From Escherichia coli (GTDB lineage Bacteria; Pseudomonadota; Gammaproteobacteria; Enterobacterales; Enterobacteriaceae), in assembly GCF_030013205.1 (NCBI RefSeq), contig NZ_CP122648.1: a stretch of DNA of 64,000 bases; one strand, 5' to 3'. Under the pieces are notes generated by a model, which did not search any database, had not been told where the DNA came from, and saw only the letters and a list, made by a program, of their open reading frames with translations. Both the position numbers and the translations under genes were made by a program. The first letter of the stretch is position 1. Each line of letters opens with the position of its first letter. Positions 3,623 to 27,218 of this stretch are shown piece after piece.

Positions 3623-3660
3623 ATCCTGCGTGCTTCAATAAAATAAGGCTTACAGAGAAC

Positions 3661-4179
3661 ATGGTAGATAAACGCGAATCCTATACAAAAGAAGACCTTC
3701 TTGCCTCTGGTCGCGGTGAACTGTTTGGCGCTAAAGGTCCGCAATTGCCAGCACCGAACATGCTGATGATGGACCGTGTGGTCAAAATGACCGAAACGGG
3801 TGGTAACTTCGACAAAGGGTATGTTGAAGCAGAACTGGATATCAATCCGGATCTGTGGTTCTTCGGATGCCACTTCATTGGCGATCCGGTTATGCCGGGA
3901 TGCCTGGGCCTGGACGCAATGTGGCAGCTGGTAGGGTTCTACCTCGGCTGGCTGGGCGGCGAAGGTAAAGGCCGCGCGCTGGGCGTTGGCGAAGTGAAAT
4001 TCACCGGTCAGGTACTGCCGACAGCGAAAAAAGTGACCTACCGTATTCACTTTAAACGCATTGTTAACCGTCGTCTGATTATGGGCCTGGCGGATGGCGA
4101 AGTGCTGGTTGATGGTCGTTTGATCTATACCGCCAGCGACCTGAAAGTCGGTCTGTTCCAGGATACGTCTGCCTTCTGA
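3661..4179 (+). CDS. fabA: 3-hydroxydecanoyl-ACP dehydratase/isomerase FabA
   Basis: ORF track 3463..4179 trimmed to ATG at 3661 ([23 protein letters not shown]...); 172 aa; matches E. coli FabA. Confidence 0.95.
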
Positions 4180-4204
4180 TTAGAATCAGACAGAGTATCA
4201 AAAG

Positions 4205-4236
4205 GCGAAACCTCCGCAATGCGGAGGTTTCTTTTT
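4205..4236 (+). terminator. Rho-independent terminator downstream of fabA
   Basis: Stem CCTCCGC / GCGGAGG with AAT loop followed by TTTCTTTTT; lies between convergent fabA and rmf. Confidence 0.65.
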
Positions 4237-4248
4237 AAAGAGACAGAA

Positions 4249-4416
4249 TCAGGCCATTACTACCCTGTCCGCCATGGCTTCTCGCCAGCCTCCCAGCCAT
4301 TGTGACCTTTGATTCAGCGTCTGATAGGGACACATTTCTTTTGAGCGTCCGGTGATGCCGGCCTGATAACCACGTTGATGTGCCCGTTCCAGGCGATCTC
4401 GTTTTTGTCTCTTCAT
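4249..4416 (-). CDS. rmf: Ribosome modulation factor Rmf
   Basis: Not in the ORF track (55 aa, below cutoff; track 65-aa ORF 4235..4432 is a different frame). Manual translation of reverse strand gives MKRQKRDRLERAHQRGYQAGITGRSKEMCPYQTLNQRSQWLGGWREAMADRVVMA*, matching E. coli Rmf; synteny fabA-rmf-pqiC. Confidence 0.9.
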   Translation of the reverse strand: MKRQKRDRLERAHQRGYQAGITGRSKEMCPYQTLNQRSQWLGGWREAMADRVVMA

Positions 4417-4613
4417 GCCTCGTTTCCCTCATACTGGTTTCTGGTGGAAAAGAAAACAGTGATTACTAAATGTGCAATCACAGTTAAGCAATACCGCGAA
4501 TCATAACTGCCGTCAATGCGCAAAATTCACGCCACTGTCATATTTGTGAGCTACACGGGCATGTCGGTTGTACAAATAATGTGAAGAGGAACAACTTTTT
4601 CCGCAAGTTAGAA

Positions 4614-4652
4614 ACAAAAAAACCGCCTCAGGCAACATACCGGAGACGGTTA
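4614..4652 (-). terminator. Putative Rho-independent terminator downstream of pqiC
   Basis: On minus strand: 9-bp stem (one G-U pair) AACCGUCUC / GAGGCGGUU followed by U7 run; located just 3' of pqiC stop (4672). Confidence 0.5.
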
Positions 4653-4671
4653 TATTTACAAATCTTTATGA

Positions 4672-5235
4672 TTACGGTAGACGCTTTATCTCTTGCGCAA
4701 TAGAAGCGGCTTCCTGACTCCATACACTGGCCAACACTTTAACCATTTCATCGTAACCATCCTGAGTTTGCACCCCTTCCAGACGGAACGGACGTTTGAT
4801 CAGTTGTCCCTGGTGGTTCAACAGCCATTCACCACTGACAATGACCTTGCCATCATAGCGACCGTTAAACTCCGTTACGGTAACATTGAGCGTGTCCTGG
4901 GCGCTTCCCAGAGGCTGGGAGGCAACCACCCAGCCGGGCAGTTGCGTACTCAGGTTGGCAACCAGAGTGTTGCGCAACTGTTGATCCAACGGGCTGGCCC
5001 ACAAGTTGTTGTTGGCAATCACATACTTCACATCACTGGTTTGATAAACCACACCATTTCCGGCCAGATAGTCAGGAACAGCGACCTGCTCTACCCATAA
5101 CAGGCGATTACCCTGGCTGGCGGTACTTTGTGTACCGCTCTGCACCACAGGTAACTGGTAATAGTTTTTATTAATTTCGCCGGAGCTGCATCCGGCCAGC
5201 CACAGTGCTGCAATCGTCACTAGCCACTTTTTCAT
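4672..5235 (-). CDS. pqiC: Paraquat-inducible / intermembrane transport lipoprotein PqiC (YmbA)
   Basis: 187-aa ORF with lipoprotein signal MKKWLVTIAALWLAGCSSGE; matches E. coli PqiC; start overlaps pqiB stop by 4 bp. Confidence 0.92.
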   Translation of the reverse strand: MKKWLVTIAALWLAGCSSGEINKNYYQLPVVQSGTQSTASQGNRLLWVEQVAVPDYLAGNGVVYQTSDVKYVIANNNLWASPLDQQLRNTLVANLSTQLPGWVVASQPLGSAQDTLNVTVTEFNGRYDGKVIVSGEWLLNHQGQLIKRPFRLEGVQTQDGYDEMVKVLASVWSQEAASIAQEIKRLP

Positions 5236-6872
5236 TGTTTCGCCCTCTTCGGCTCTGGATCTTTTTTGTCCTTCGCTTCAAATACCAGCGCGTTACTCTT
5301 CTCGTTGAGCGTTTTCAGCACCGGTTGCAGTTCTCGCAACACCTGATCAAGTCGCTGCATATCCGCCACCATCTTGTTGTAGGCTGCGGAGCCAGGCTGG
5401 AAGCCCTGCATGCTGCGATTCAATTCACGCAACGTTGACTGCATATCCGTCGGTAACTGCTGCATCGACTGGCTGGCGAGGATCTTGTTCATGCTATCCA
5501 GCGTCGTTTGCAGGTTTTTCATTGTGCGCTGACTTTCAGAAAGCGTACTGGTTGCCTGTTCAATCATCGGATTCAATGGCAGTTTGTTGATCTTATCCAA
5601 CGCTTCCATCAGTCGTTGCTGGATTTGCGCCAGACCGCCGCTGACGGTCGGGATAATCTGATAACCATTAAATTCACGAATACCGGTTATTGCAGGCGTA
5701 TTTGGATAGAAATCGAGATCAACATACAGTGCGCCAGTGACCAGGTTTCCGGTTTTCAGCGATCCGCGTAAACCACGTTTCAACAATTCGCCAAGGTGCT
5801 CAACAACATCCGCATTTTCGCCAAGCTGCATTTTCAGCCGCTCTGGCTCGATACGAATCAGTACCGGAATACGGTAATCATCGTTAAATGTCTGACGCAT
5901 ATTCGGCGCAAAGAATGGCACTTTGCTTACGGTACCCAGGCGAATACCCCGGAATTCTACCGGAGCTCCCGGTTGCAGACCGCGTACCGAATCTTTAAAG
6001 AACATCAGATAATCAATGTGATCGGTGTACAACGAATCCTGAATGCTCTTCTGATCATCATACAAAACGAAAGCTGTTTTCGGTGCCACTGGCTGCCCTA
6101 AATCCAGACCTTCCGGCACATCAAAGCTGACACCGCCACTAAGCAGCGTTGTCAATGAGCCCATCTCCACACGCATTCCCGCTGACGTCAAATCAACCGC
6201 AATGCCACTATCTTTCCAGAAGCGAACATTGCTGGTCACCAGACGGTCATAAGGTGCATTGATGAACAGTTGATAGCTGATATTGCGTTTTTGCGTATCG
6301 AAGGTGCTGGTTTCAACCGAACCTACCCGATAGCCACGGAACAGCACGGGATCTCCTGGCGAGAGCTGCCCGGCTTTTTTGCTATCGAGAATCACACGAA
6401 TACCTTTCGCATCAGGCGGAGCCAACGGTGGCGAGTCCAGCAAATCGTATTTATCCATTTTGCTGCCTTTCGCGCCTGGCTGCAGTTCGATATAAACCCC
6501 AGACAGCAGCGTTCCCAGGCCGCTAATCCCTTCTCGACCAATCTGCGGTTTCACCACCCAAAAGACGGTATCTTTATGCAGCAATTTTTCCATACCGGAA
6601 TTCAGCCGCGCTTTGATTTCAACGTGCGTCAAATCATCAGCCAGTGTGGCGCTTTCAACCACGCCGACGTCAACGCTACGGCTTTTAATGGTGGTTTTAC
6701 CACCTTCTATTCCTTCCGCATTCGCGGTGATCAGGGTCACTTCCGGCCCCTGATGGCTGTAATGATAAAAAAGAACCCAAGCCCCAATGAGCGCCGTGAC
6801 GATAGGAAATATCCACACGGGAGACCAGTTCTTCACTTTCTGGATTTTGGCTTCCCCATTATTAGATTCCAT
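5232..6872 (-). CDS. pqiB: Intermembrane transport protein PqiB (MCE-domain protein)
   Basis: ORF track 5232..6932 trimmed to ATG at 6872 (MESNNGEAKIQKVKNWSPVWIFPIVT...); 546 aa; matches E. coli PqiB. Confidence 0.92.
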   Translation of the reverse strand: MESNNGEAKIQKVKNWSPVWIFPIVTALIGAWVLFYHYSHQGPEVTLITANAEGIEGGKTTIKSRSVDVGVVESATLADDLTHVEIKARLNSGMEKLLHKDTVFWVVKPQIGREGISGLGTLLSGVYIELQPGAKGSKMDKYDLLDSPPLAPPDAKGIRVILDSKKAGQLSPGDPVLFRGYRVGSVETSTFDTQKRNISYQLFINAPYDRLVTSNVRFWKDSGIAVDLTSAGMRVEMGSLTTLLSGGVSFDVPEGLDLGQPVAPKTAFVLYDDQKSIQDSLYTDHIDYLMFFKDSVRGLQPGAPVEFRGIRLGTVSKVPFFAPNMRQTFNDDYRIPVLIRIEPERLKMQLGENADVVEHLGELLKRGLRGSLKTGNLVTGALYVDLDFYPNTPAITGIREFNGYQIIPTVSGGLAQIQQRLMEALDKINKLPLNPMIEQATSTLSESQRTMKNLQTTLDSMNKILASQSMQQLPTDMQSTLRELNRSMQGFQPGSAAYNKMVADMQRLDQVLRELQPVLKTLNEKSNALVFEAKDKKDPEPKRAKQ

Positions 6873-6876
6873 ACTG

Positions 6877-8130
6877 TCAGGACTCCTCATGCTCTGATTC
6901 AGGTTGACGATCCCACGACAAACGCGGGTCAAACGTCATAGCAGAAAACATTGTCATTATGACGACTAAAGCAAACATTAATGCACCCATTGCCGGATAA
7001 ATACTCATTAAACCTCCCATACGCACCAGCGCCGAGAGCACCGCGATAACGAAAACGTCAATCATCGACCAGCGGCCTACAAACTCAACAACTTCATAAA
7101 TCAAATGCATTCTTTCACTGTCGCGCTTGCCATGCCCTTTGGCATCCCAACACAACCACGCTATGGCGATCATCTTTAACGTTGGCACCATAATACTGGC
7201 CAGAAAGATAACCGCAGCGACGGGATAAGATCCTTCGCTCCATAACAGGATGACCCCAGCGAGAATCGTCGATGGCATCTTCGAGCCTAATAAATCCGTC
7301 ACCATGATGGGCAAAATATTAGCCGGAAGATACAGCATGATGGACGTAACAAGCAGCGCGAGTGTCCATTGCAGGCTGTTTCTACGTCGAACGTACCCTT
7401 TGGTACTACAACGCGGGCACACGGGTTCGTCAGCAGGAAGGATTGCCGTACAACAGGAGCACGAACGCAGCCCCTGACGTATCCCCGTGACGCCAGGTTT
7501 TAGCGGCTGGCGCAGTTCTGGCATCGGGGCGATATCGTCCCATAACCAGCGACGATCAACGCACTGAAAGGCGCGCAGTTGCAGGACACAAAATAAACAC
7601 CAGGGGAGAAAGCTGCTGCCGACACCAATGCTGCCGTAAGCCATCAGTTTAACGAAACTGACCAGCACACCCGCGAGGAAAATCTCCGCCATTCCCCAGG
7701 TTTTGAGTTGAAAAAGCACCCGTGCCAGTTGCTCTTTTAAACGGACCGGTAATTCCGCGCGATTCACCAGTAACAGAATGGTTATCAGACAAAACGCGGG
7801 AACCAGTTGCACAAACAACAGGAAAAAGGTGCCGAGGCTGGCGTAGTCCTCAGAAAAAAGCACGCCGGGAATTTCCAGTAATGTAATTTCACTGGTAACT
7901 CCTGCAACGTTCATATTCACAAAAGGAAACAAGTTGGACAGCAACAGCATGAACAGTGCAGCCAACGCATAGGCGGTGGGACGCTGCCGAGGGGCATCCC
8001 ACGCCACGGTTAACGTTGTGCCACACCGGGGACATGCCGCTTTCTGACCATGCTCAAGGCGCGGTAACGCCACCAGCATGTCACACTGCGAGCACAGGAT
8101 GTGCTTCGCGGCATGATGATGTTCGCACAT
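6877..8130 (-). CDS. pqiA: Intermembrane transport protein PqiA
   Basis: 417-aa ORF MCEHHHAAKHILCSQCDMLVALPRLEHGQKAACPRCG... with Cys-rich N-terminus and membrane segments; matches E. coli PqiA. Confidence 0.93.
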   Translation of the reverse strand: MCEHHHAAKHILCSQCDMLVALPRLEHGQKAACPRCGTTLTVAWDAPRQRPTAYALAALFMLLLSNLFPFVNMNVAGVTSEITLLEIPGVLFSEDYASLGTFFLLFVQLVPAFCLITILLLVNRAELPVRLKEQLARVLFQLKTWGMAEIFLAGVLVSFVKLMAYGSIGVGSSFLPWCLFCVLQLRAFQCVDRRWLWDDIAPMPELRQPLKPGVTGIRQGLRSCSCCTAILPADEPVCPRCSTKGYVRRRNSLQWTLALLVTSIMLYLPANILPIMVTDLLGSKMPSTILAGVILLWSEGSYPVAAVIFLASIMVPTLKMIAIAWLCWDAKGHGKRDSERMHLIYEVVEFVGRWSMIDVFVIAVLSALVRMGGLMSIYPAMGALMFALVVIMTMFSAMTFDPRLSWDRQPESEHEES

Positions 8131-8259
8131 TGGTACTCCTTAATGATGCGCTATTTTACAGATGACTAACAAAGTGTTGGTTTTCATGCCTGATAAACCC
8201 AGTTCATCAGGCAATTTTACCGTTGTCAGCTGTCTCTGTTTAAATCGACTATTTTGCGA

Positions 8260-10167
8260 TCAGCCACCATTTTTTAACGCTTCAAGATACTCCCAGCGTT
8301 CAAAGGCTTGCTCCAGCTCCTGCTCTGCAGCAGCCATATCGGCGAGCACTTTTTGCGTCTGCTCATGCGGCTGACTGAAGAAGGAAGCATCCGCCACCTG
8401 CGTCTGTAGGGCTTCCAGCTTCGCCTCCAGATCTTCGAGCAATTGCGGTAGCTGCTCCAGTTCGCGCTGCAATTTATAGCTTAGTTTGCTACTGCTGCGT
8501 TTTACAGTTTCTGCTTTTGGCGCGGCGGCTTCTTCGATTTTTTTCACCGCAGGCTGTTTGAGCGCCACATACTGTTCTTGCTGACCACGGGCATCATGAT
8601 AACCGCCGACATAACGACCAATTTTACCGCCGCCTTCGAAGATCCAGCATTCTGTAACGGTGTTATCGACAAACTGACGATCGTGGCTCACCAGCAATAC
8701 CGTGCCCTGGTAGCTGTCGATCAGTTCTTCCAGCAGTTCCAGCGTTTCAACATCAAGATCGTTGGTCGGTTCGTCAAGAATCAATAAGTTGCTTGGTTTG
8801 AGGAACAAACGCGCCAACAACAAGCGGTTACGCTCACCGCCAGAAAGCGCACGTACCGGCGTCATCGCCCGTTTCGGATGGAACAGGAAGTCCTGCAAAT
8901 AGCCCAAAACATGGCGTGGCTTGCCGTTAACCATCACCTCTTGCTTACCTTCAGCAAGGTTATCCATCACCGTTTTATCGGGATCCAGTTCCGCACGGTG
9001 CTGATCGAAATAAGCCACTTCCAGTTTGGTGCCAACGTGAATACGCCCGCTGTCCGCCTGAAGCTGACCGAGCATCAGTTTCAGCAGCGTGGTTTTGCCG
9101 CATCCATTCGGACCAATCAGGGCAATTTTGTCGCCACGTAGAACCTGGGCAGAAAAATCTTTCACCAGTTGCTTACCGTCGACCTGGTAGCAAACGTCTT
9201 CCATTTCGAAAACGATCTTACCGGAACGGCTGGCCTCTTCCACCTGCATCTTTGCGGTACCCATCACTTCGCGACGTTCGCCACGCTCGCGACGCATTGC
9301 TTTCAGGGCGCGTACGCGGCCTTCATTACGGGTACGGCGTGCTTTGATCCCCTGGCGGATCCACACCTCTTCCTGCGCCAGTTTGCGATCGAACTCGGCA
9401 TTTTGTAGTTCTTCCACGCGCAGGGCTTCTTCTTTTTCCAGCAGGTACTGGTCGTAATTCCCAGGATAGGTCACAAGCTTGCCGCGATCGAGATCAACAA
9501 TACGCGTCGCCATATTGCGGATAAACGAACGGTCGTGGGAGATGAAAATAATCGTCCCATTGAAGGTTTTAAGGAATCCTTCCAGCCAGTCGATGGTTTC
9601 GATATCCAGGTGGTTAGTCGGTTCGTCGAGCAGCAATACGCGCGGATTGCTCACCAGCGCGCGTCCTAATGCCGCTTTACGCAACCAGCCGCCGGAAAGC
9701 GACGACAGCGCAACGTTAGGATCTAACCCCAGTTGCGCCAGCACTTCGTTAATGCGGTTTTCCAGCTGCCACAGGTTGTGGTGATCCAACTGTTCCTGAA
9801 CCTTCGCCAGTTCGTTGAGATTTTTCTCGCTCGGGTCGTTCATCACCAGGCGCGAAATATCGTGATAGCGTTTCAGGTATTCCGCTTGTTCTTCAATGCC
9901 TTCGGCAACGAAATCATAAACACTCCCCTCAACGTTACGCGGCGGATCCTGTTGCAGACGAGCTACAATCAAATCTTGCTCGTAAATAATGCGACCGTCA
10001 TCCAGCCCTTGTTCACGGTTGAGGATTTTCATTAACGTCGATTTGCCTGCGCCGTTGCGGCCCACCAGACAAACACGTTCGTTATCTTCGATATGCAGTT
10101 CTGCGTTATCGAGAAGCGGCGCGTCGCTGAACGACAGCCATGCGCCATGCATACTGATTAATGACAT
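8260..10167 (-). CDS. uup: ABC-F family ATPase Uup
   Basis: 635-aa ORF with two ABC ATPase cassettes (GRNGAGKST, GPNGCGKTT Walker A motifs) and C-terminal coiled-coil tail; matches E. coli Uup. Confidence 0.95.
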   Translation of the reverse strand: MSLISMHGAWLSFSDAPLLDNAELHIEDNERVCLVGRNGAGKSTLMKILNREQGLDDGRIIYEQDLIVARLQQDPPRNVEGSVYDFVAEGIEEQAEYLKRYHDISRLVMNDPSEKNLNELAKVQEQLDHHNLWQLENRINEVLAQLGLDPNVALSSLSGGWLRKAALGRALVSNPRVLLLDEPTNHLDIETIDWLEGFLKTFNGTIIFISHDRSFIRNMATRIVDLDRGKLVTYPGNYDQYLLEKEEALRVEELQNAEFDRKLAQEEVWIRQGIKARRTRNEGRVRALKAMRRERGERREVMGTAKMQVEEASRSGKIVFEMEDVCYQVDGKQLVKDFSAQVLRGDKIALIGPNGCGKTTLLKLMLGQLQADSGRIHVGTKLEVAYFDQHRAELDPDKTVMDNLAEGKQEVMVNGKPRHVLGYLQDFLFHPKRAMTPVRALSGGERNRLLLARLFLKPSNLLILDEPTNDLDVETLELLEELIDSYQGTVLLVSHDRQFVDNTVTECWIFEGGGKIGRYVGGYHDARGQQEQYVALKQPAVKKIEEAAAPKAETVKRSSSKLSYKLQRELEQLPQLLEDLEAKLEALQTQVADASFFSQPHEQTQKVLADMAAAEQELEQAFERWEYLEALKNGG

Positions 10168-14352: not shown

Positions 14353-15363
14353 TTAGATATGGGTAACGATTTCTTTAATCAGCGGCGGACCTTTAAAAAT
14401 AAAACCAGAATAAATTTGCACCAGTGAGGCCCCCGCAGCAATCTTTTCACGCGCAGCGATAACCGAGTCGATGCCGCCAACACCGATGATCGGTAAGCGA
14501 CCATTTAATTCCTGTGATAAACGGCGAATAATTTCGGTGCTTTTTAACTGAAGCGGACGACCACTTAAGCCACCGGTTTGATCACAATTTTTCATTCCCT
14601 GAACCAGAGAACGATCGAGTGTGGTATTGGTTGCAATAACGCCATCAATATTATGGCGAACTAAACTATCGGCAACCTGGATCAATTCTTCTTCAGAAAG
14701 ATCCGGCGCGATCTTCACTGCGATCGGCACATATTTATGGTGCATCGCTTGCAAATCATTTTGCTTATTTTTAATCGCGGTTAAGAGATCATCCAGCGCT
14801 TCGCCATATTGCAGAGTACGTAATCCCGGTGTATTCGGCGATGAAATATTGATGGCGATATATCCCGCATAAGCATAGATTTTTTCCATACAAATCAGAT
14901 AGTCATCTTTACCCTGCTCCACCGGCGTATCTTTATTTTTGCCGATGTTAATACCCAGGACGCCATCATAATGGGCTTTTTTTACGTTCTCTACGAGGTT
15001 ATCAACGCCAAGATTATTAAAGCCCATACGGTTGATCAAACCTTCGGCATCTACCAGACGAAAGAGACGCGGCTTGTCATTACCTGGCTGTGGACGTGGC
15101 GTGACGGTACCGATCTCGATCGATCCAAATCCCATCGCGCCTAACGCGTCAATGCACTCCCCGTCTTTATCAAGACCGGCTGCCAGACCAAGCGGATTTT
15201 TAAACGTCAGGCCCATGCAGTTAACAGGTTTCGCAGGCACTTTCTGCCGCACCAGTGCTTCAAACGGCGTTCCTGTAATACGGCGTAATTGCTGAAAAGT
15301 AAACTCATGAGCGCGCTCTGGATCGAGCTGGAAAAGGGCTTTACGAACGAAGGGGTAGTACAT
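14353..15363 (-). CDS. pyrD: Dihydroorotate dehydrogenase (quinone) PyrD
   Basis: ORF track 14353..15390 trimmed to ATG at 15363 ([21 protein letters not shown]...); 336 aa; matches E. coli PyrD. Confidence 0.95.
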
Positions 15364-15448
15364 GAACTCTCCTGGATTCCCGGTGTGCAAACCGGGGGCG
15401 TATTATGTGCGAGTTCGGACCAAAAGGGAATTGACCTGTGGCAATAAA

Positions 15449-15464
15449 TAGCAAACGTTTTCTT
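15449..15464 (-). promoter_or_regulatory. PurR-box-like operator upstream of pyrD (TAGCAAACGTTTTCTT)
   Basis: 16-bp sequence matching 14/16 of the recalled PUR box (ACGCAAACGTTTTCTT) about 90 bp upstream of pyrD start; pyrD is a known PurR regulon member. Confidence 0.45.
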
Positions 15465-15599
15465 ATTGCGCTTTTTTTATGCTTTTTTTGGCTTTTCTTC
15501 CTCAGATAAATCATTTCGACTCGCGGGCCACCTCTGTCAGACTGACCGAATTGTTATCAATGTTAACAAAACAAGAACAATTGGTTATAAGGAGAGAGT

Positions 15600-16175
15600 A
15601 TGCGTGTCATCACCCTGGCGGGTAGTCCTCGCTTTCCTTCTCGCTCCAGCTCCTTGCTGGAATATGCGCGGGAAAAACTGAATGGCCTGGATGTAGAGGT
15701 TTATCACTGGAATCTGCAAAACTTTGCCCCGGAAGATCTGCTTTATGCTCGTTTCGATAGTCCGGCACTCAAGACCTTCACCGAACAACTGCAACAGGCC
15801 GATGGACTGATAGTCGCTACACCTGTGTATAAAGCCGCCTATTCCGGCGCGCTGAAAACCCTGCTCGACCTGCTGCCAGAACGCGCTTTGCAAGGCAAAG
15901 TGGTGCTACCACTGGCGACGGGCGGCACGGTGGCTCATCTGCTGGCGGTCGATTACGCCCTTAAACCAGTTTTAAGTGCGCTGAAAGCCCAGGAGATCCT
16001 GCACGGCGTGTTTGCCGATGACTCGCAAGTAATTGATTACCACCACAAACCCCAGTTCACGCCAAATCTGCAAACCCGTCTTGATACCGCGCTGGAAACT
16101 TTCTGGCAGGCATTGCATCGTCGGGATGTTCAGGTTCCTGACCTTCTGTCTCTGCGAGGTAATGCCCATGCGTAA
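15600..16175 (+). CDS. ssuE: NADPH-dependent FMN reductase SsuE
   Basis: 191-aa ORF MRVITLAGSPRFPSRSSSLLEYAREKL...; matches E. coli SsuE; first gene of ssuEADCB operon. Confidence 0.95.
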   Translation: MRVITLAGSPRFPSRSSSLLEYAREKLNGLDVEVYHWNLQNFAPEDLLYARFDSPALKTFTEQLQQADGLIVATPVYKAAYSGALKTLLDLLPERALQGKVVLPLATGGTVAHLLAVDYALKPVLSALKAQEILHGVFADDSQVIDYHHKPQFTPNLQTRLDTALETFWQALHRRDVQVPDLLSLRGNAHA

Positions 16176-17127
16176 GATCATTAAACTGGCGCTGGCGGGC
16201 TTACTTAGCGTCTCTACACTTGCTGTTGCCGCGGAGTCTTCGCCAGAGGCGTTACGCATTGGCTATCAGAAAGGCAGTATTGGTATGGTGCTGGCAAAAA
16301 GCCACCAATTACTGGAAAAACGCTATCCGCAAACAAAAATCTCCTGGGTGGAGTTCCCGGCTGGCCCACAGATGCTGGAGGCGTTAAACGTTGGCAGTAT
16401 TGATCTCGGCAGTACCGGGGATATTCCGCCAATCTTTGCCCAGGCTGCCGGGGCTGATTTGGTATACGTGGGCGTCGAGCCGCCGAAGCCCAAAGCCGAA
16501 GTGATTCTGGTGGCAGATAACAGCCCGATCAAAACCGTAGCCGATCTTAAAGGTCACAAAGTTGCCTTTCAGAAAGGTTCCAGCTCGCACAATCTTTTAC
16601 TACGCGCACTACGCCAGGCCGGGCTTAAATTCACGGATATCCAGCCCACTTACCTGACACCTGCCGATGCCCGCGCCGCGTTCCAGCAAGGTAACGTCGA
16701 CGCCTGGGCTATCTGGGATCCCTACTACTCCGCTGCATTATTACAGGGCGGCGTGCGGGTGCTAAAAGACGGCACCGATCTCAATCAGACCGGATCGTTT
16801 TATCTGGCTGCCCGTCCGTATGCAGAAAAAAACGGTGCTTTTATTCAGGGCGTACTGGCAACCTTTAGTGAGGCCGATGCGTTAACCCGCAGCCAGCGCG
16901 AGCAAAGCATCGCTTTACTGGCAAAAACGATGGGCTTACCGGCCCCGGTGATTGCCTCTTATTTAGATCATCGCCCCCCTACCACCATCAAACCGGTTAA
17001 CGCCGAAGTTGCCGCCTTACAGCAGCAAACGGCAGATCTGTTTTATGAAAATCGTCTGGTGCCTAAAAAAGTCGATATTCGCCAGCGCATCTGGCGGCCA
17101 ACTCAACTGGAAGGAAAACAATTATGA
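16168..17127 (+). CDS. ssuA: Aliphatic sulfonate ABC transporter periplasmic binding protein SsuA
   Basis: ORF track 16033..17127 trimmed to ATG at 16168 ([21 protein letters not shown] signal peptide); 319 aa; overlaps ssuE end by 8 bp. Confidence 0.93.
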
Positions 17128-18269
17128 GTCTGAATATGTTCTGGTTTTTACCGACCCATGGTGACGGGCACTATCTGGGAACGGAAGAAGGTTCACGTCC
17201 GGTTGATCACGGTTATCTGCAACAAATTGCGCAAGCGGCGGATCGTCTGGGTTATACCGGTGTGCTGATCCCAACAGGACGATCGTGTGAAGATGCGTGG
17301 CTGGTGGCGGCGTCGATGATCCCGGTGACGCAGCGGCTGAAGTTTCTTGTCGCCCTGCGTCCCAGCGTAACCTCACCTACCGTTGCCGCCCGCCAGGCCG
17401 CCACGCTTGACCGTCTCTCGAATGGTCGTGCGTTGTTTAATCTGGTCACAGGCAGCGATCCACAAGAGCTGGCAGGCGACGGCGTGTTCCTTGATCATAG
17501 CGAGCGCTACGAAGCCTCGGCGGAATTTACCCAGGTCTGGCGGCGCTTATTGCTGGGGGAAACCGTCAATTTCAACGGTAAACATATTCATGTGCGCGGA
17601 GCCAAACTGCTCTTCCCGCCGATTCAACAGCCGTATCCTCCGCTTTACTTTGGCGGATCGTCAGATGTCGCCCAGGAGCTTGCGGCAGAACAAGTTGATC
17701 TCTACCTCACCTGGGGCGAACCGCCGGAACTGGTTAAAGAGAAAATCGAACAAGTGCGGGCGAAAGCTGCCGCGCATGGACGCAAAATTCGTTTCGGTAT
17801 TCGTCTGCATGTGATTGTTCGTGAAACTAACGACGAAGCGTGGCAGGCCGCCGAGCGGTTAATCTCGCATCTTGATGATGAGACTATCGCCAAAGCACAA
17901 GCCGCATTCGCCCGGACGGATTCCGTAGGACAACAGCGAATGGCGGCGCTACATAACGGCAAGCGCGACAATCTGGAGATCAGCCCCAATTTATGGGCGG
18001 GCGTTGGCTTAGTGCGCGGCGGTGCCGGGACGGCGCTGGTAGGCGATGGTCCGACGGTCGCTGCGCGAATCAACGAATACGCCGCGCTTGGCATCGACAG
18101 CTTTGTGCTTTCGGGCTACCCGCATCTGGAAGAAGCGTATCGGGTTGGCGAGTTGCTGTTTCCGCATCTGGATGTCGCCATCCCGGAAATTCCGAAGCCA
18201 CAACCGCTGAATCCGCAAGGCGAAGCGGTGGCGAATGATTTTATCCCCCGTAAAGCCGCGCAAAGCTAA
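17124..18269 (+). CDS. ssuD: FMNH2-dependent alkanesulfonate monooxygenase SsuD
   Basis: 381-aa [22 protein letters not shown]...; matches E. coli SsuD; ATGA overlap with ssuA stop. Confidence 0.95.
17300..17307 (+). other. Chi octamer GCTGGTGG (RecBCD recombination hotspot motif)
   Basis: Exact octamer read in sequence inside ssuD; function not testable from sequence; Chi motifs are frequent in E. coli. Confidence 0.4.
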
Positions 18270-18279
18270 GGAATAAATA

Positions 18280-19071
18280 ATGGCAACGCCAGTGAAGAAG
18301 TGGTTATTGCGCGTTGCCCCCTGGTTTTTACCGGTGGGCATCGTGGCGGTGTGGCAACTGGCCTCCTCAGTTGGCTGGCTGTCGACGCGTATTTTGCCCT
18401 CTCCGGACGGGGTGGTGATGGCGTTCTGGACGCTCTCCGCCAGCGGCGAATTGTGGCAGCATCTGGCGATCAGCTCCTGGCGGGCGTTGATTGGCTTTTC
18501 AATTGGCGGATCGCTGGGCTTGATTCTGGGACTGATTAGCGGGCTGTCGCGCTGGGGAGAACGGCTGCTGGATACCTCCATTCAAATGTTGCGCAACGTG
18601 CCGCATCTGGCGCTGATCCCGCTGGTGATTTTGTGGTTTGGCATTGATGAATCCGCAAAAATCTTTCTGGTCGCACTCGGTACGCTATTCCCCATTTATA
18701 TCAACACCTGGCATGGCATCCGTAATATCGATCGCGGGTTGGTGGAAATGGCGCGTAGCTATGGATTATCCGGCATACCGCTGTTTATCCATGTGATCCT
18801 GCCTGGCGCCCTGCCCTCAATTATGGTCGGCGTGCGTTTTGCGTTGGGCCTGATGTGGCTGACGTTGATTGTTGCCGAAACCATTTCTGCCAATTCCGGC
18901 ATTGGTTATCTGGCGATGAATGCGCGGGAGTTTTTGCAAACGGACGTGGTGGTAGTCGCCATTATTCTTTACGCCCTGCTCGGCAAACTTGCTGACGTCA
19001 GCGCGCAGCTGTTAGAGCGCCTCTGGTTGCGCTGGAACCCGGCTTATCATTTGAAGGAGGCCACGGTATGA
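18280..19071 (+). CDS. ssuC: Aliphatic sulfonate ABC transporter permease SsuC
   Basis: 263-aa hydrophobic [30 protein letters not shown]...; matches E. coli SsuC. Confidence 0.95.
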
Positions 19072-19835
19072 ATACTGCTCGTCTGAACCAGGGCACACCA
19101 TTGTTGCTCAATGCAGTAAGCAAACATTACGCAGAAAATATCGTCCTGAACCAACTGGATTTACATATTCCGGCAGGTCAGTTTGTGGCGGTGGTGGGCC
19201 GCAGCGGTGGTGGCAAAAGTACCCTGCTGCGCCTGCTGGCAGGTCTGGAAACGCCAACCGCTGGCGATGTGTTAGCGGGCACCACACCGCTGGCTGAAAT
19301 TCAGGAAGACACGCGAATGATGTTTCAGGATGCGCGTCTGCTGCCGTGGAAATCGGTGATTGATAACGTTGGGTTAGGCCTTAAAGGCCAGTGGCGCGAT
19401 GCCGCGCGTCGGGCGTTGGCTGCAGTAGGACTGGAGAATCGCGCAGGGGAATGGCCTGCCGCACTTTCAGGCGGGCAGAAACAGCGAGTGGCGCTGGCAA
19501 GAGCGTTGATTCATCGACCGGGTTTATTGTTGCTTGATGAACCGCTCGGGGCGCTGGACGCCTTAACGCGACTCGAGATGCAGGATTTGATTGTGTCACT
19601 TTGGCAGGAGCACGGCTTTACCGTACTGTTGGTGACGCATGATGTGAGCGAAGCGGTAGCAATGGCGGACCGGGTGTTGTTAATTGAAGAGGGAAAAATT
19701 GGTCTGGATTTGACGGTGGATATCCTCCGTCCGCGCCGGTTAGGGTCGGTGCGATTAGCGGAGCTGGAATCGGAAGTGTTGCAAAGGGTGATGCAGCGTG
19801 GTGAATCTGAAATTCGCCTGAGAAAACAGGGGTAA
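19068..19835 (+). CDS. ssuB: Aliphatic sulfonate ABC transporter ATP-binding protein SsuB
   Basis: 255-aa ORF with Walker [10 protein letters not shown] and ABC signature LSGGQKQR; 4-bp overlap with ssuC. Confidence 0.95.
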
Positions 19836-19840
19836 ATTCC

Positions 19841-19876
19841 CCGAATGGCGGCGCTATTGCCGCCATTCGGTTATTT
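19841..19876. terminator. Terminator hairpin between convergent ssuB and pepN
   Basis: Perfect 12-bp stem CCGAATGGCGGC / GCCGCCATTCGG with 6-nt loop, followed by TTATTTAT on plus strand; occupies the entire ssuB-pepN gap. Confidence 0.7.
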
Positions 19877-19877
19877 A

Positions 19878-22490
19878 TCAAGCCAGTGCTTTGGTGATCT
19901 TCTCGTACAGATCGCCAGAGAGATTTTCCAGCCCTTTCAACTGTTCCAGCGCCGCACGCATTTTCTCCTGACGTTTGGCATCATAACGTTTCAGGCGAAT
20001 CAGCGGTTCAATCAGACGTGAAGCCACCTGCGGGTTACGGCTGTTGAGGTCGGTAAGCATTTCCACCAGGAACTGGTAACCGCTGCCATCTTCGGCATGG
20101 AACGCTGCCGGATTGCTGCCCGCAAACGCGCCAATCAACGAACGAATACGGTTCGGGTTGCTCATGGTAAATGAGCGATGCTGCAACAGACCGCGCACCG
20201 TCTCCAGCACATTCGCCGCCGGGCTGGTGGCTTGCAGGATAAACCATTTATCCATCACCAGACCATCCTGATGCCACTTGTCGTCGTACTCCTGCATCAG
20301 CGCGTCACGGCATGGCAGCTGTGCAGCAACCGCCGCAGAAAGCGCTGCCAGCGCATCGGTCATATTGTTCGCTTCGTGGAACTGCTTACTCACCAGCACA
20401 TCAGCCAGATGCGTTTCACCAAAAGCAAGGAAACGCAGGCAGGCATTACGCAGAGTGCGTTTTGCAATATCTTCATGCTCAACGCGGTACTCGCTCTGGT
20501 AATTCGCGTTGTAAATAGCCAGCAGCTCATCCGCCAGTTCAGTCGCCAGAGTACGGGTGAGTGCTTCACGCACTTCGGCAATGGCAATCGGGTCGATGAT
20601 ATCGAACAGTTCCGCCATTTCATTGACGGAAGGCAGCGTCAGAATTTCTGCCGCCAGCGCCGGATCGATTTTTTCATCCAGCAGCACCGCGCGGAAAGCG
20701 TCAGCCACATGCACCGGCAGAGACAGCGGCTGTCCTTGCTGATGACGGGCGACGTTCAGCTTGATGTAGGTTGCCAGCAGGCTTTGCGCCGCATCCCAGC
20801 GGGAGAAATCATTACGCGCATGACGCATCAGGAAGGTCAGTTGCTGATCGCTCCACTTATATTCCAGTTTCACTGGCGCAGAGAATTCGCACAACAGCGC
20901 AGGCACCGGCTGGAAGTAGACATTATCAAAGACAAAGGTCTGTTCCGCCTGGGTGACGTTCAGCACCGAATTGACCGGATGACCGCCTTTCTGCAACGGG
21001 ATCACTTTGCCTTCGTTATCATACAGTTCGATGGCAAACGGAATATGCAGCGGCTGTTTTTCTGCCTGATCCGGCGTAGCTGGCGTGCGCTGGCTGATGG
21101 TCAGGGTGTACTGCTCGGTTTCTGGATTGTAGTCGTCTTTGACGGTCACAACCGGCGTACCGGACTGGCTGTACCAACGGCGGAAATGAGAGAGATCGAC
21201 ATTCGATGCATCTTCCATCGCCTGCACAAAGTCGTCACAGGTCGCTGCACTACCATCATGACGCTCGAAATAAAGCTGCATCCCTTTCTGGAAGTTTTCT
21301 TCGCCCAGCAGGGTGTGGATCATGCGAATCACTTCCGCGCCCTTCTCGTAAACGGTCAGGGTGTAGAAGTTGTTCATCTCAATGACCATATCCGGGCGGA
21401 TCGGGTGCGCCATCGGGCTGGCGTCTTCCGCAAACTGCAATCCGCGCATGGTGCGCACGTTGTTGATACGGTTTACCGCGCGGGAACCAAGGTCAGAGCT
21501 GAATTCCTGATCGCGGAAGACGGTTAAACCTTCTTTCAGGCTGAGCTGGAACCAGTCGCGGCAGGTCACACGGTTACCGGTCCAGTTGTGGAAATATTCA
21601 TGGCCGATAACACGCTCAATATCGAGGTAATCTTTATCGGTGGCGGTGTCGGTACGGGCCAGCACATATTTGGAGTTAAAGATATTCAGACCTTTATTCT
21701 CCATTGCGCCCATATTGAAGAAATCCACCGCGACGATCATATAGATGTCGAGGTCATACTCCAGGCCGAAGCGTTCTTCATCCCATTTCATGGAGTTTTT
21801 CAGCGAGGTCATCGCCCACGGCGCGCGGTCGAGGTTGCCGCGATCGACGTACAACTCCAGCGCCACTTCGCGACCAGAACGCGTGGTGAAGGTGTCGCGC
21901 AGCACGTCGAAGTCGCCTGCAACCAGCGCAAACAGGTAGCACGGTTTCGGGAACGGGTCCTGCCACTGTACCCAGTGACGTCCGTTTTCCAGTTCGCCTT
22001 GCGCAACGCGGTTACCGTTGGAAAGCAGGAAGGGATATTTGGTTTTATCGGCAATAATTTTGGTGGTAAAACGCGCCAGTACGTCCGGGCGGTCGAGATA
22101 GTACGTAATGTGGCGGAAACCTTCAGCTTCACACTGGGTGCAAAGCGCATCGCCTGACTGATAAAGCCCTTCCAGCGCGGTATTCGTCGCCGGGCTAATT
22201 TCATTAACGATCTTAAGCGTAAAACGCTCCGGCAAATTACTGATGACCAGTGCGCCCTCTTCTTCTTTCCAGGCGGTCCACGGCTCATCATTAATATGAA
22301 CAGAAACCAGTTTAAGATCTTCGCCATCAAGACGAAGCGGAGCATCTGATGCACCATGACGGACAGCCTGGCTGACCGCGGTAACGACCGTCTTTTGCGC
22401 GTCCAGGTCAAAGGTCAAGTCAATATCAGTAATCTGGTAATCCGGCGCACGATAATCGTGACGGTATTTGGCTTGTGGCTGTTGAGTCAT
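19878..22490 (-). CDS. pepN: Aminopeptidase N
   Basis: 870-aa ORF MTQQPQAKYRHDYRAPDYQITDIDLTF... with M1 zinc-peptidase motif HEYFHNWTGN; matches E. coli PepN. Confidence 0.96.
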   Translation of the reverse strand: MTQQPQAKYRHDYRAPDYQITDIDLTFDLDAQKTVVTAVSQAVRHGASDAPLRLDGEDLKLVSVHINDEPWTAWKEEEGALVISNLPERFTLKIVNEISPATNTALEGLYQSGDALCTQCEAEGFRHITYYLDRPDVLARFTTKIIADKTKYPFLLSNGNRVAQGELENGRHWVQWQDPFPKPCYLFALVAGDFDVLRDTFTTRSGREVALELYVDRGNLDRAPWAMTSLKNSMKWDEERFGLEYDLDIYMIVAVDFFNMGAMENKGLNIFNSKYVLARTDTATDKDYLDIERVIGHEYFHNWTGNRVTCRDWFQLSLKEGLTVFRDQEFSSDLGSRAVNRINNVRTMRGLQFAEDASPMAHPIRPDMVIEMNNFYTLTVYEKGAEVIRMIHTLLGEENFQKGMQLYFERHDGSAATCDDFVQAMEDASNVDLSHFRRWYSQSGTPVVTVKDDYNPETEQYTLTISQRTPATPDQAEKQPLHIPFAIELYDNEGKVIPLQKGGHPVNSVLNVTQAEQTFVFDNVYFQPVPALLCEFSAPVKLEYKWSDQQLTFLMRHARNDFSRWDAAQSLLATYIKLNVARHQQGQPLSLPVHVADAFRAVLLDEKIDPALAAEILTLPSVNEMAELFDIIDPIAIAEVREALTRTLATELADELLAIYNANYQSEYRVEHEDIAKRTLRNACLRFLAFGETHLADVLVSKQFHEANNMTDALAALSAAVAAQLPCRDALMQEYDDKWHQDGLVMDKWFILQATSPAANVLETVRGLLQHRSFTMSNPNRIRSLIGAFAGSNPAAFHAEDGSGYQFLVEMLTDLNSRNPQVASRLIEPLIRLKRYDAKRQEKMRAALEQLKGLENLSGDLYEKITKALA

Positions 22491-22708
22491 AAATAACCTT
22501 TAGCATCTTTGATAGAGTCTGGTGTTCAGTCTATTCCTGTTGCGTAAATCGCGCTATGCAGAATCTTCATCTTTTCAGGTACAAACGCCTTTATTGCTAC
22601 ATTTTTATAACATACACCGCGTAATGCCATCGACTAGAAAGGTGGCATATGGTGTGATCGGGGTTCAATAAATTGCGAAACAAGGTATACTCCAGCAGTT
22701 CCTGAAGA

Positions 22709-22726
22709 TGTTTATTGTACTAAACG
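22709..22726 (+). promoter_or_regulatory. NadR operator (NAD box TGTTTA-N6-TAAACG) in pncB promoter
   Basis: Inverted repeat TGTTTATTGTACTAAACG about 30 bp upstream of pncB ATG, just downstream of a TATACT -10-like hexamer (22686..22691); pncB is a known NadR target. Confidence 0.5.
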
Positions 22727-22755
22727 CTCCTGTACGAGGACGCTACTGCGCACCT

Positions 22756-23958
22756 ATGACACAATTCGCTTCTCCTGTTCTGCACTCGTTGCTGGATACA
22801 GATGCTTATAAGTTGCATATGCAGCAAGCCGTGTTTCATCACTATTACGATGTGCATGTCGCGGCGGAGTTTCGTTGCCGAGGTGACGATCTGCTGGGTA
22901 TTTATGCCGATGCTATTCGTGAACAGGTTCAGGCGATGCAGTACCTGCGCCTGCAGGATGATGAATATCAGTGGCTCTCTGCCCTGCCTTTCTTTAAGGC
23001 CGACTATCTTAACTGGCTACGCGAGTTCCGCTTTAACCCGGAACAAGTCACCGTGTCCAACGATAATGGCAAGCTGGATATTCGTTTAAGCGGCCCGTGG
23101 CGTGAAGTCATCCTCTGGGAAGTTCCTTTGCTGGCGGTTATCAGTGAAATGGTACATCGCTATCGCTCACCGCAGGCCGACGTTGCGCAAGCCCTCGACA
23201 CGCTGGAAAGCAAATTAGCCGACTTCTCGGCATTAACCGCCGGTCTTGATATGTCGCGCTTCCATCTGATGGATTTTGGCACCCGCCGACGTTTTTCTCG
23301 TGAAGTACAAGAAACCATCGTGAAACGTCTCCAACAGGAATCCTGGTTCGTGGGCACCAGCAACTACGATCTGGCGCGTCGGCTTTCCCTCACGCCAATG
23401 GGAACACAAGCACACGAATGGTTCCAGGCGCATCAGCAAATCAGTCCGGATCTTGCCAACAGCCAGCGAGCTGCACTTGCTGCCTGGCTGGAAGAATATC
23501 CCGACCAACTTGGCATTGCGTTAACCGACTGTATTACCATGGATGCTTTCCTGCGTGATTTCGGTGTCGAGTTCGCCAGCCGCTATCAGGGCCTGCGTCA
23601 TGACTCCGGCGACCCGGTTGAATGGGGTGAAAAAGCCATTGCACATTATAAGAAGCTGGGAATTGATCCACAGAGTAAAACGCTGGTTTTCTCTGACAAT
23701 CTGGATTTACGCAAAGCGGTTGAGCTATACCGCCACTTCTCTTCCCGCGTGCAATTAAGTTTTGGTATTGGGACTCGCCTGACCTGCGATATCCCCCAGG
23801 TAAAACCCCTGAATATTGTCATTAAGTTGGTTGAGTGTAACGGTAAACCGGTGGCGAAACTTTCTGACAGCCCTGGCAAAACTATCTGCCACGATAAAGC
23901 GTTTGTTCGGGCGCTGCGCAAAGCGTTCGACCTTCCGCATATTAAAAAAGCCAGTTAA
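22756..23958 (+). CDS. pncB: Nicotinate phosphoribosyltransferase PncB
   Basis: ORF track 22708..23958 trimmed to ATG at 22756 ([26 protein letters not shown]...); 400 aa; matches E. coli PncB. Confidence 0.94.
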
Positions 23959-23965
23959 TATCATC

Positions 23966-23991
23966 AGGGAGCTAATCGGCTCCCTTTTTTT
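23966..23991 (+). terminator. Rho-independent terminator downstream of pncB
   Basis: Stem AGGGAGC / GCTCCCT with 5-nt loop followed by T7 run immediately after pncB stop. Confidence 0.7.
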
Positions 23992-24126
23992 ACCTTTAAT
24001 TCCGAAATCTTTCGCTGCATTTGCGAATTCTGCTTGTCTGATTGCAGATGCCAGGTAACATAGGTATCCCCCCATTTACGGGTGGACAAGTGTTTATTTT
24101 TTCCGACTATTAACAGAGAGAATATT

Positions 24127-25527
24127 ATGAGCGTTGTGCCTGTAGCCGACGTACTCCAGGGCCGCGTAGCCGTTGACAGCGAAGTCACCGTGCGCGGATG
24201 GGTACGTACCCGCCGAGATTCAAAAGCTGGCATCTCCTTCCTCGCCGTTTATGACGGTTCCTGCTTTGATCCTGTACAGGCTGTCATCAATAATTCTCTG
24301 CCCAATTACAATGAAGACGTCCTGCGTCTGACCACCGGTTGCTCAGTCATTGTGACGGGTAAAGTCGTGGCATCGCCGGGCCAGGGGCAACAATTTGAAA
24401 TTCAGGCCAGCAAGGTTGAAGTTGCTGGTTGGGTTGAAGATCCAGACACTTACCCGATGGCGGCAAAACGCCACAGCATTGAGTATCTGCGTGAAGTCGC
24501 TCACCTGCGTCCGCGCACAAACCTGATTGGTGCCGTCGCGCGCGTTCGCCATACGCTGGCGCAGGCGCTGCATCGCTTCTTTAACGAGCAGGGATTCTTC
24601 TGGGTTTCAACGCCACTGATTACTGCGTCTGATACCGAAGGGGCTGGCGAAATGTTCCGCGTTTCTACGCTGGATCTGGAAAACCTGCCGCGTAACGATC
24701 AGGGCAAAGTGGATTTCGACAAAGACTTCTTTGGTAAAGAGTCTTTCCTGACCGTATCTGGCCAGTTGAACGGCGAAACCTACGCTTGCGCATTATCCAA
24801 AATTTATACCTTCGGCCCGACTTTCCGTGCTGAAAACTCCAACACCAGCCGTCACCTGGCGGAATTCTGGATGCTGGAGCCGGAAGTGGCGTTTGCTAAC
24901 CTGAACGATATCGCGGGTCTGGCTGAAGCCATGCTGAAATATGTCTTCAAAGCGGTTCTCGAAGAACGCGCTGACGACATGAAATTCTTCGCTGAACGCG
25001 TAGATAAAGATGCCGTTTCACGTCTGGAACGCTTCATTGAAGCCGATTTTGCGCAGGTGGATTACACCGACGCAGTGACCATTCTCGAAAACTGCGGCAG
25101 GAAGTTTGAAAACCCAGTTTACTGGGGCGTTGATCTCTCTTCTGAGCATGAGCGTTATCTGGCGGAAGAACACTTTAAAGCACCGGTAGTGGTTAAAAAC
25201 TATCCGAAAGATATTAAAGCGTTCTATATGCGCCTTAACGAAGACGGTAAAACCGTTGCGGCTATGGACGTTCTGGCTCCGGGCATCGGTGAGATCATTG
25301 GTGGCTCCCAGCGTGAAGAACGTCTGGACGTGCTGGACGAGCGTATGCTGGAAATGGGCCTGAATAAAGAAGATTACTGGTGGTATCGCGATCTGCGTCG
25401 CTACGGTACTGTTCCGCATTCAGGTTTCGGTCTTGGTTTTGAACGCCTGATTGCTTACGTAACTGGTGTGCAAAACGTGCGTGATGTGATTCCGTTCCCA
25501 CGTACTCCGCGTAACGCCAGCTTCTAA
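24127..25527 (+). CDS. asnS: Asparaginyl-tRNA synthetase
   Basis: ORF track 24082..25527 trimmed to ATG at 24127 ([35 protein letters not shown]...); 466 aa; class II aaRS motifs; matches E. coli AsnS. Confidence 0.95.
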
Positions 25528-25980: not shown

Positions 25981-26129
25981 ACGGTAGCGAAACGTTAGTT
26001 TGAATGGAAAGATGCCTGCAGACACATAAAGACACCAAACTCTCATCAATAGTTCCGTAAATTTTTATTGACAGAACTTATTGACGGCAGTGGCAGGTGT
26101 CATAAAAAAAACCATGAGGGTAATAAATA

Positions 26130-27218
26130 ATGATGAAGCGCAATATTCTGGCAGTGATCGTCCCTGCTCTGTTAGTAGCAGGTACTGCAAACGCTGCAGA
26201 AATCTATAACAAAGATGGCAACAAAGTAGATCTGTACGGTAAAGCTGTCGGTCTGCATTATTTCTCCAAGGGTAACGGTGAAAACAGTTACGGTGGCAAT
26301 GGTGACATGACCTATGCCCGTCTTGGTTTTAAAGGGGAAACTCAAATCAATTCCGATCTGACCGGTTATGGTCAGTGGGAATATAACTTCCAGGGTAACA
26401 ACTCTGAAGGCGCTGACGCTCAAACTGGTAACAAAACGCGTCTGGCATTCGCGGGTCTTAAATACGCTGACGTTGGTTCTTTCGATTACGGCCGTAACTA
26501 CGGTGTGGTTTATGATGCACTGGGTTACACCGATATGCTGCCAGAATTTGGTGGTGATACTGCATACAGCGATGACTTCTTCGTTGGTCGTGTTGGCGGC
26601 GTTGCTACCTATCGTAACTCCAACTTCTTTGGTCTGGTTGATGGCCTGAACTTTGCTGTTCAGTACCTGGGTAAAAACGAGCGTGACACTGCACGCCGCT
26701 CTAACGGCGACGGTGTTGGTGGTTCTATCAGCTACGAATACGAAGGCTTTGGTATCGTTGGTGCCTATGGCGCCGCTGACCGTACCAACCTGCAAGAAGC
26801 TCAACCTCTTGGCAACGGTAAAAAAGCTGAACAGTGGGCTACTGGTCTGAAGTATGACGCGAACAACATCTACCTGGCAGCGAACTACGGTGAAACCCGT
26901 AACGCTACGCCGATCACTAATAAATTTACAAACATCAGCGGCTTCGCCAACAAAACGCAAGACGTTCTGTTAGTTGCGCAATACCAGTTCGATTTCGGTC
27001 TGCGTCCGTCCATCGCTTACACCAAATCTAAAGCGAAAGACGTAGAAGGTATCGGTGATGTTGATCTGGTGAACTACTTTGAAGTGGGCGCAACCTACTA
27101 CTTCAACAAAAACATGTCCACCTATGTTGACTACATCATCAACCAGATCGATTCTGACAACAAACTGGGCGTAGGTTCTGACGACACCGTTGCTGTGGGT
27201 ATCGTTTACCAGTTCTAA
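26130..27218 (+). CDS. ompF: Outer membrane porin OmpF
   Basis: 362-aa [41 protein letters not shown]... ending ...VGIVYQF; essentially identical to E. coli K-12 OmpF. Confidence 0.97.

Follow-up and report, generated by a model that had tools for sequence, protein, structure and literature searches.

Cumulatively, our comparisons suggest that the 236-bp interval separating pyrD from ssuE in the window, by which we mean the whole 64-kb stretch of Escherichia coli DNA that was analysed, is very probably the ancestral-type, empty allele of this locus, and that the elf operon carried by other strains is an insertion of about 7 kb just on the ssuE side of the predicted PurR operator. The interval would then represent the uninterrupted divergent control region of pyrD and ssuEADCB in its ancestral-type form, into which the elfADCG-ycbUVF chaperone-usher cassette would have been inserted in other lineages, immediately ssuE-ward of the operator. 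A first reading made from the letters of this DNA (the sequence-only reading) had taken the arrangement to be either a clean lineage-specific absence or a precise deletion. The former description holds, while the latter is refuted by a segment of the junction, 15463-15537, which is conserved in outgroups.

The two genes form a divergent pair, and the sequence between them (15364-15599) is intergenic and exactly 236 bp long, which bears out both the adjacency of ssuE and pyrD and the spacing that had been described for them. As assessed by tblastn, the PyrD protein of the window is 99.7% identical and the SsuE protein 99.5% identical to its K-12 counterpart, and the annotation of K_EC180, a record identical to the window, agrees for both genes. 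ssuE is the first gene of ssuEADCB, and this operon extends to about 19835. The features of the locus, in order of position, are:

14353-15363, minus strand: pyrD coding sequence, from the open reading frame list and its translation; quinone-dependent dihydroorotate dehydrogenase, 336 aa
15358-15431, minus strand: PyrD leader (Rfam RF02373), a 5' UTR with a hairpin and the Shine-Dalgarno sequence AGGAG
15423-15438, minus strand: conserved block AGGTCAATTCCCTTT upstream of the pyrD leader, its alignment columns at least 80% identical across 20 enterobacterial spacers
15449-15464, no strand assigned: PurR-operator-like 16-bp palindrome TAGCAAACGTTTTCTT, its centre 93 bp upstream of the pyrD ATG
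15463-15537, no strand assigned: ancestral spacer segment of about 70-75 bp, without a BLAST match in elf-bearing alleles
15538-15599, plus strand: ssuE-proximal control region with the blocks CAGACTG, AATTGTTATCAATGTTA and GTTATAAGGAGAG (Shine-Dalgarno)
15600-16175, plus strand: ssuE coding sequence, from its open reading frame and translation; NADPH-dependent FMN reductase, 191 aa

The pyrD-ward half of the spacer would comprise the PyrD leader, the pyrD promoter and the PurR operator. The leader matches the RF02373 covariance model over positions 1-74 of 74 with 97.9 bits against a gathering score of 47 (E=1.4e-17), which places it in the family; its position and orientation upstream of pyrD are correct, and it overlaps the pyrD start. 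A hairpin, CCCGGT...ACCGGG, lies within the leader at 15377-15398, and 15364-15407 is almost without variation in a 20-taxon alignment composed of the window spacer and 19 empty spacers. Because a simple sigma-70 consensus scan of 15250-15700 found no promoter, we can only infer the role of AGGTCAATTCCCTTT, which is presumably part of the pyrD promoter. The PurR-like box that had been noticed for pyrD was recovered as the palindrome TAGCAAACGTTTTCTT, which possesses the central CG and the core of a predicted PurR operator. Its exact core, GCAAACGTTTTC (15451-15462), occurs once in the 64-kb window and is kept in 20 of 20 taxa. A search with the core as GCAAACGTTTNC also gave a unique exact match in the window and, with one mismatch allowed, 3 matches against 2.25 expected, that is, no more than chance. 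The K-12 equivalent at the same place is ACGCAAACGTTTTCCG, and pyrD is reportedly regulated by PurR. On the pyrD side, the elf insertion and every other gene-content variant at the locus end at this box.

The ssuE-ward half would consist of a core promoter and 5' UTR, preceded by a conserved region that probably carries predicted Cbl/CysB activator sites. The core promoter and 5' UTR of ssuEADCB probably correspond to 15538-15599, in which 15549-15565, 15576-15582 and 15584-15592 are kept across 20 taxa. The leader of ssuE is intact, as the first reading had it, with 61 of the 62 ssuE-proximal bases as in K-12 (98%). Between the two halves, the segment 15463-15537 retains the blocks ATAAATCATTTCG (15506-15516) and TTATGC (15477-15482); in K-12 orientation, the blocks conserved family-wide within these 75 bp are CTGACAGAG, CGAAATGATTTAT and GCATAA. 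In the spacer alignment, Escherichia spp., Citrobacter, Enterobacter, Klebsiella, Kluyvera, Kosakonia, Cedecea and Buttiauxella all retain the segment. The matching flank of O157:H7, O102:H6, KE55 and E1V33 has a different sequence, and against the K-12 locus, with a BLAST word size of 7, the segment gave no match.

The K-12 gene order given in the first reading proved to be correct: in MG1655, elfA-elfD-elfC-elfG-ycbU-ycbV-ycbF (b0938-b0944) occupy the space between ssuE and pyrD, 7,255 bp from start codon to start codon. Homology between the window and K-12 ends on the ssuE side at 15538, 62 bp upstream of the ssuE ATG, and resumes on the pyrD side at 15462, 99 bp upstream of the pyrD ATG. 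The GC content is 46.5% in the elf segment and 26% in the region upstream of elfA, as compared with 55% in the ssu genes. All elf-bearing alleles examined (K-12, O157:H7, O102:H6, KE55 and E1V33) have one common pair of boundaries, and the ancestral spacer is common to all empty alleles examined (the window, NRZ14408, APEC O2:K1:H4 and EcN).

The polarity of the difference follows from the outgroups. A PyrD scan of one genome per species provided 80 loci with 10-kb flanks, and in 69 of them ssuE lies directly upstream of pyrD, divergently, across a spacer of about 236-356 bp. ssuEADCB is wholly missing from a further 7, one contig is too short to tell, and elf occupies the site in the remaining 3, which belong to Escherichia sp. 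E1V33 and two Pseudocitrobacter species. A spacer of exactly 236 bp is found in Escherichia whittamii, Escherichia sp. MOD1-EC7003 and a record titled E. coli SCPM-O-B-8794. Conserved blocks span the full 236 bp of the 20-taxon alignment, as is to be expected of an ancestral-type allele, and since the spacer is conserved in outgroups, the allele of the window is very likely the ancestral-type one and elf the derived insertion.

The elf cassettes at the three species loci span retrieved-locus positions 3113-9887 in E1V33 and approximately 3150-9887 in both Pseudocitrobacter species. Their Elf proteins are 73-86% identical in the case of E1V33 and 55-74% in the case of Pseudocitrobacter, and are therefore far more diverged than the flanking SsuE (87-99%) and PyrD (94-99%), while the pyrD-side junction is common to both. 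Either the cassette is old and fast-evolving, or it has moved between genera by recombination in the flanks. The site also varies in other ways. In several species, including E. albertii NBRC 107761 and S. enterica subsp. arizonae, ssuEADCB is missing and pepN adjoins pyrD; the interval of Superficieibacter electus (retrieved-locus 4941-9915) holds an SSF symporter, a NagB-like isomerase, an amidohydrolase and a ROK regulator, and that of Enterobacter sp. BIGb0383 (retrieved-locus 6440-9916) a LysR regulator, a nucleoside symporter and a PNP-family phosphorylase. All gene-content variants have in common an edge that coincides with the PurR box or lies close to it, 85-139 bp upstream of the pyrD ATG.

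The flanks of the elf-bearing alleles were aligned to a profile HMM built from 20 empty spacers. The left flanks of the E1V33 and Pseudocitrobacter alleles aligned weakly up to the GCATAA block, and the alignment of the K-12 left flank ended earlier, at model position 86; the right flanks gave confident alignments that set in immediately ahead of the PurR box and were cleanest in Pseudocitrobacter. These flank alignments place the insertion point of elf at about 15465-15476. Smith-Waterman comparison of the left flank of elf-bearing alleles with the ancestral spacer was not significant (49-132 of 1000 shuffles). In view of the weak HMM alignment of the left flanks, a clean replacement of 75 bp was dropped in favour of an insertion beside the PurR box together with a strongly diverged left flank; the left flank may fit an insertion that replaced 75 bp, or else a simple insertion followed by divergence or by import from a distant donor. 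At the left end of the K-12 cassette (retrieved-locus about 3650-3680), what looked by eye like a degenerate second copy of the PurR box was rejected for want of statistical support.

The first reading had implied that the junction is rare, which is not the case: the whole 236 bp is present, at 97.9-100% identity, in 1,352 of 5,426 complete E. coli genomes, although the window-type spacer (at least 99% identical) is limited to about 33 genomes. Within the same set, any match to elfC was found in 4,036 genomes (about three quarters) and a match of at least 80% coverage in 4,003, the K-12 ssuE-elfA junction was found in 3,999, and only 4 elfC places are on plasmids; 38 genomes possess neither elfC nor the complete empty spacer. 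As the number of elfC matches of at least 80% coverage agrees with that of ssuE-elfA junctions, elf adjoins ssuE in essentially every elf-bearing genome. Several phylogroups are represented among the empty-site genomes, which include the B2 strains APEC O2:K1:H4, ST131 and Nissle. Absence of the operon from B2 has already been published: Wurpel et al. 2013 described Ycb/Elf as clade-specific, occurring in phylogroups A, B1, D and E but not in B2, named Auf as its B2 counterpart and found the two to be mutually exclusive (PMC3559732). The presence or absence of elf at this locus is a known polymorphism of a known fimbrial operon and an ordinary strain difference.

EcN_Sk was discarded as a B2 comparator because it is 99.83% identical to K-12 here, and APEC O2:K1:H4 was used instead. 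Over positions 1-40236 of this record (NZ_CP172017.1, labelled Nissle/B2), which correspond to approximately 1-35400 of the window, the sequence is K-12-like at the 99.83% just mentioned, as compared with 97.7% for a genuine B2 strain, and yet the site is empty. Its few differences from K-12 fall into clusters of approximately 30 bp, at every third base, for example at retrieved-locus 20855-20885, 21242-21269 and 26650-26677, and in the original Nissle record, CP007799, the 5' end of ssuE is 99.4% identical to K-12. Either an effect of assembly or a recent A-to-ST73 recombination that was patchily repaired could account for the likeness of EcN_Sk to K-12.

Inside E. coli, empty and elf behave as alternative alleles whose sharp boundaries are the same, and their exchange would run through the promoter arms of roughly 60-100 bp together with the flanking genes. 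The flanks of the window are closest to those of D-type strains, with 98.2% identity overall to each of NRZ14408 (empty) and O102:H6 (elf-bearing), against 97.3% to a B2 strain and 97.6% to K-12. Its closest flanking haplotype is that of KE55 (NZ_CP141061.1), which carries elf and shows, relative to the window, no SNP over 14831-15438 and 4 over 15538-17300, the remaining differences, besides the cassette, being allele-class substitutions at 15439-15450 and 15535/15537. Since KE55 has near-identical flanks and yet is elf-bearing, the empty and elf states appear to have been swapped as a clean cassette, and we infer that this exchange occurred by homologous recombination via the conserved arms. 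The lineage of the window may have lost elf by allelic replacement, or KE55 may have gained it.

The former course, in which the window lineage was once elf-bearing and its cassette was recently replaced, by homologous recombination with crossovers in or near the promoter arms, with an empty allele from an NRZ14408-like E. coli donor, is a serious possibility, although not the one that we would put first. Most of the next-closest ssuEAD haplotypes, like KE55 itself, carry elf, and the window equals KE55 up to both boundaries of the cassette; it shares its spacer unchanged with NRZ14408, a strain in which ssuE diverges sharply from 15911 on, so that the window appears mosaic-like with a breakpoint near the junction. 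Vertical inheritance of the empty allele in the window lineage has to be viewed against this same pair of comparisons, a nearest flanking haplotype that is elf-bearing and an identical spacer joined to a divergent ssuE side. However, the data also fit a gain of the D-type elf operon by KE55 on an empty background, and keeping in mind that the whole 37-kb region is a patchwork of recombination, similarity of the flanks is a poor guide to ancestry. The first reading's remark that an adhesin locus has been removed needs correction: the locus is absent, but the site is better described as never interrupted, or as restored to the ancestral arrangement.

Signs of recombination were also seen elsewhere in the region. 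Across 16001-21000 (ssuEADCB), identity of the window to the E. coli strains compared, which represent A, B2, D and E, does not go beyond 93-98%, and its flanks reach 98-99.8% with D-type strains. KE55 matches the initial 2 kb at 99.7%, and from about 18000 the sequence is divergent from all those sampled. The ssu operon of the window looks like a mosaic of recombination tracts. Within pyrD, 14470-14830 carries 13 substitutions relative to both KE55 and NRZ14408, most of them also relative to O102:H6, K-12 and a B2 strain, and looks like a short import from an unsampled lineage. At 26001-27000, which is ompF by K-12 synteny, identity is only 89.8% to the D-type strains NRZ14408 and O102:H6, whereas K-12 and O157:H7 match at 98.9% and KE55 at about 99%; ompF is a hot spot of allelic variation, uncoupled from the backbone around it.

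A precise deletion arising de novo, in which illegitimate recombination, or recombination between short repeats, would have removed the 7-kb operon from an elf-bearing ancestor, is very improbable, and what speaks for it is the superficial picture of a clean junction free of gene remnants. Approximately 70-75 bp of the junction (15463-15537) is absent from all elf-bearing alleles examined and kept in outgroup genera in which elf never occupies the site, and for this reason no deletion from an elf-bearing allele could have generated the junction of the window. Neither mark of a deletion scar was found: the junction is not built solely from sequence of elf-bearing alleles, and direct repeats, IS remnants and gene stubs are missing from it, the repeat search of 15000-16000 having returned short chance pairs of which none brackets the junction. 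The traces to which the sequence-only reading had pointed, short remnants of elfA or ycbF and direct repeats on either side, are accordingly not present at the junction. The occurrence of the same junction, at least 97.9% identical, in the 1,352 genomes of several phylogroups also argues against such an excision.

The window itself is devoid of the operon, and the statement that no fimbrial gene remnants are left there stands. When all seven K-12 Elf/Ycb proteins were compared with the 64-kb window by tblastn, no match was obtained at E<1e-3, be it to the ElfC usher, to the ElfD and YcbF chaperones, or to the ElfA major and ElfG, YcbU and YcbV minor subunits or their pseudogene remnants; blastn of the 7.1-kb K-12 segment against the window gave none at E<1e-2. 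For complete genomes we used a composite probe, in which 1,800 bp of ssuE-ssuA-ssuD from the window and 1,300 bp of K-12 elfC were joined in an unnatural orientation, such that one matching place signifies no elfC and elf-bearing genomes give two places. The probe ranked the window's own lineage first (99.9-100% identity), and each of the 18 complete chromosomes that match the window at 99.9% or more (K_EC180, O139:H1 W13-16 and P15-25, the porcine ETEC series, EC556/571/581 and CFSAN018748) displayed a single place, and hence no elfC anywhere. The strain of the window belongs to a porcine O139:H1/ST1-like lineage. O139:H1-ST1 is phylogroup E by the Clermont scheme (PMC6230658); the flanks of the window instead resemble D-type strains. 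A relocation of elf to another part of this strain's genome, outside the window, which the first reading had itself envisaged, is the least probable explanation of all, for nothing positive speaks in its favour apart from the window being only about 1.3% of a 5-Mb genome, and against it stand the lack of elfC in these 18 chromosomes, the agreement of 4,003 elfC genomes with 3,999 ssuE-elfA junctions, and the mere 4 plasmid-borne elfC places.

As the strain carries the empty allele, it cannot make ELF fimbriae. The consequence at the level of the strain is the lack of ELF/Ycb laminin-binding fimbriae, and beyond the description of the strain this is of little importance. In K-12 these fimbriae are said to be cryptic. 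In one O157:H7 genome (Z1814; retrieved-locus 20001-25441), elfC has a frameshift, elfG an internal stop and ycbF a frameshift, all three being annotated as pseudogenes, which indicates that, in the serotype from which ELF was originally described, at least some strains carry a decayed operon. CFS3246 and ETEC1716 have IS1 insertions in elf or beside it. A contribution of ELF to the adherence of O157:H7 in vitro is described in passages of PMC7593697 and PMC3032704 that cite Samadder et al. 2009.

The direction of the difference from K-12 is what our analysis corrects: it is K-12 that is derived, and the empty site represents the ancestral compact divergent control region of pyrD and ssuE. For annotation pipelines and pangenome studies, the locus provides a clean two-allele presence/absence marker with fixed boundaries, whose history, as the comparison of the window with KE55 illustrates, is dominated by homologous recombination and not by phylogroup-faithful vertical descent. 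We regard as modestly new the polarity, the finding that the boundaries are fixed, one at the predicted PurR operator and the other at the probable ssuE core promoter, and the evidence for recombinational exchange of the cassette. It is conceivable, but in our opinion unlikely, that elf and empty are long-lived alternative alleles shuttled within Escherichia, and possibly between it and Pseudocitrobacter, by recombination in the conserved promoter arms of pyrD and ssuE, and that Cbl/CysB-dependent control of ssu would differ between strains with and without elf. The argument here is that the cassette displaces, or is accompanied by divergence of, a family-wide conserved region of approximately 70 bp upstream of ssuE, so that control of sulfonate utilisation would differ between the two types; if true, a fimbrial polymorphism would be coupled to a sulfur-starvation phenotype.

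Set beside known loci, the window is matched most closely by the porcine ETEC/STEC genomes (K_EC180, W13-16, P15-25, ETEC17xx/40xx/63xx and EC556/571/581), in which the junction and ssuE-ssuA-ssuD are 99.9-100% like those of the window; they show no difference at the locus, are annotated plainly as pyrD followed by ssuE, and are effectively of the same lineage. The empty junction of B2 strains (APEC O2:K1:H4 E12053, Nissle 1917 and ST131) consists of the same 236-bp spacer with the central segment, 97.9-98.3% identical; in its variable part four bases are substituted (GGTGGCCCGC in the window as against GGGCGTCCGC in B2), and the flanking genes are only about 97.3% identical. KE55 differs in having, at the same boundaries, a complete D-type elf operon, whose identity to the O102:H6 operon is 98.7% and to the K-12 operon 95.6%. 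The K-12 locus (b0937-b0945) shares with the window the flanking genes and their divergent orientation, and the ssuE-proximal 62 bp and pyrD-proximal 99 bp, the latter including the core of the PurR box and the PyrD leader, are 96-99% identical; where the window has its 75-bp central spacer, however, K-12 has 7,093 bp with the seven chaperone-usher fimbrial genes and the elfA upstream region of 26% GC. In the ssuE-pyrD spacers of other Enterobacteriaceae, the variable stretches have diverged from the window and some genera have insertions of 10-15 bp beside the PurR box, yet these spacers are collinear with that of the window and every conserved block is present.
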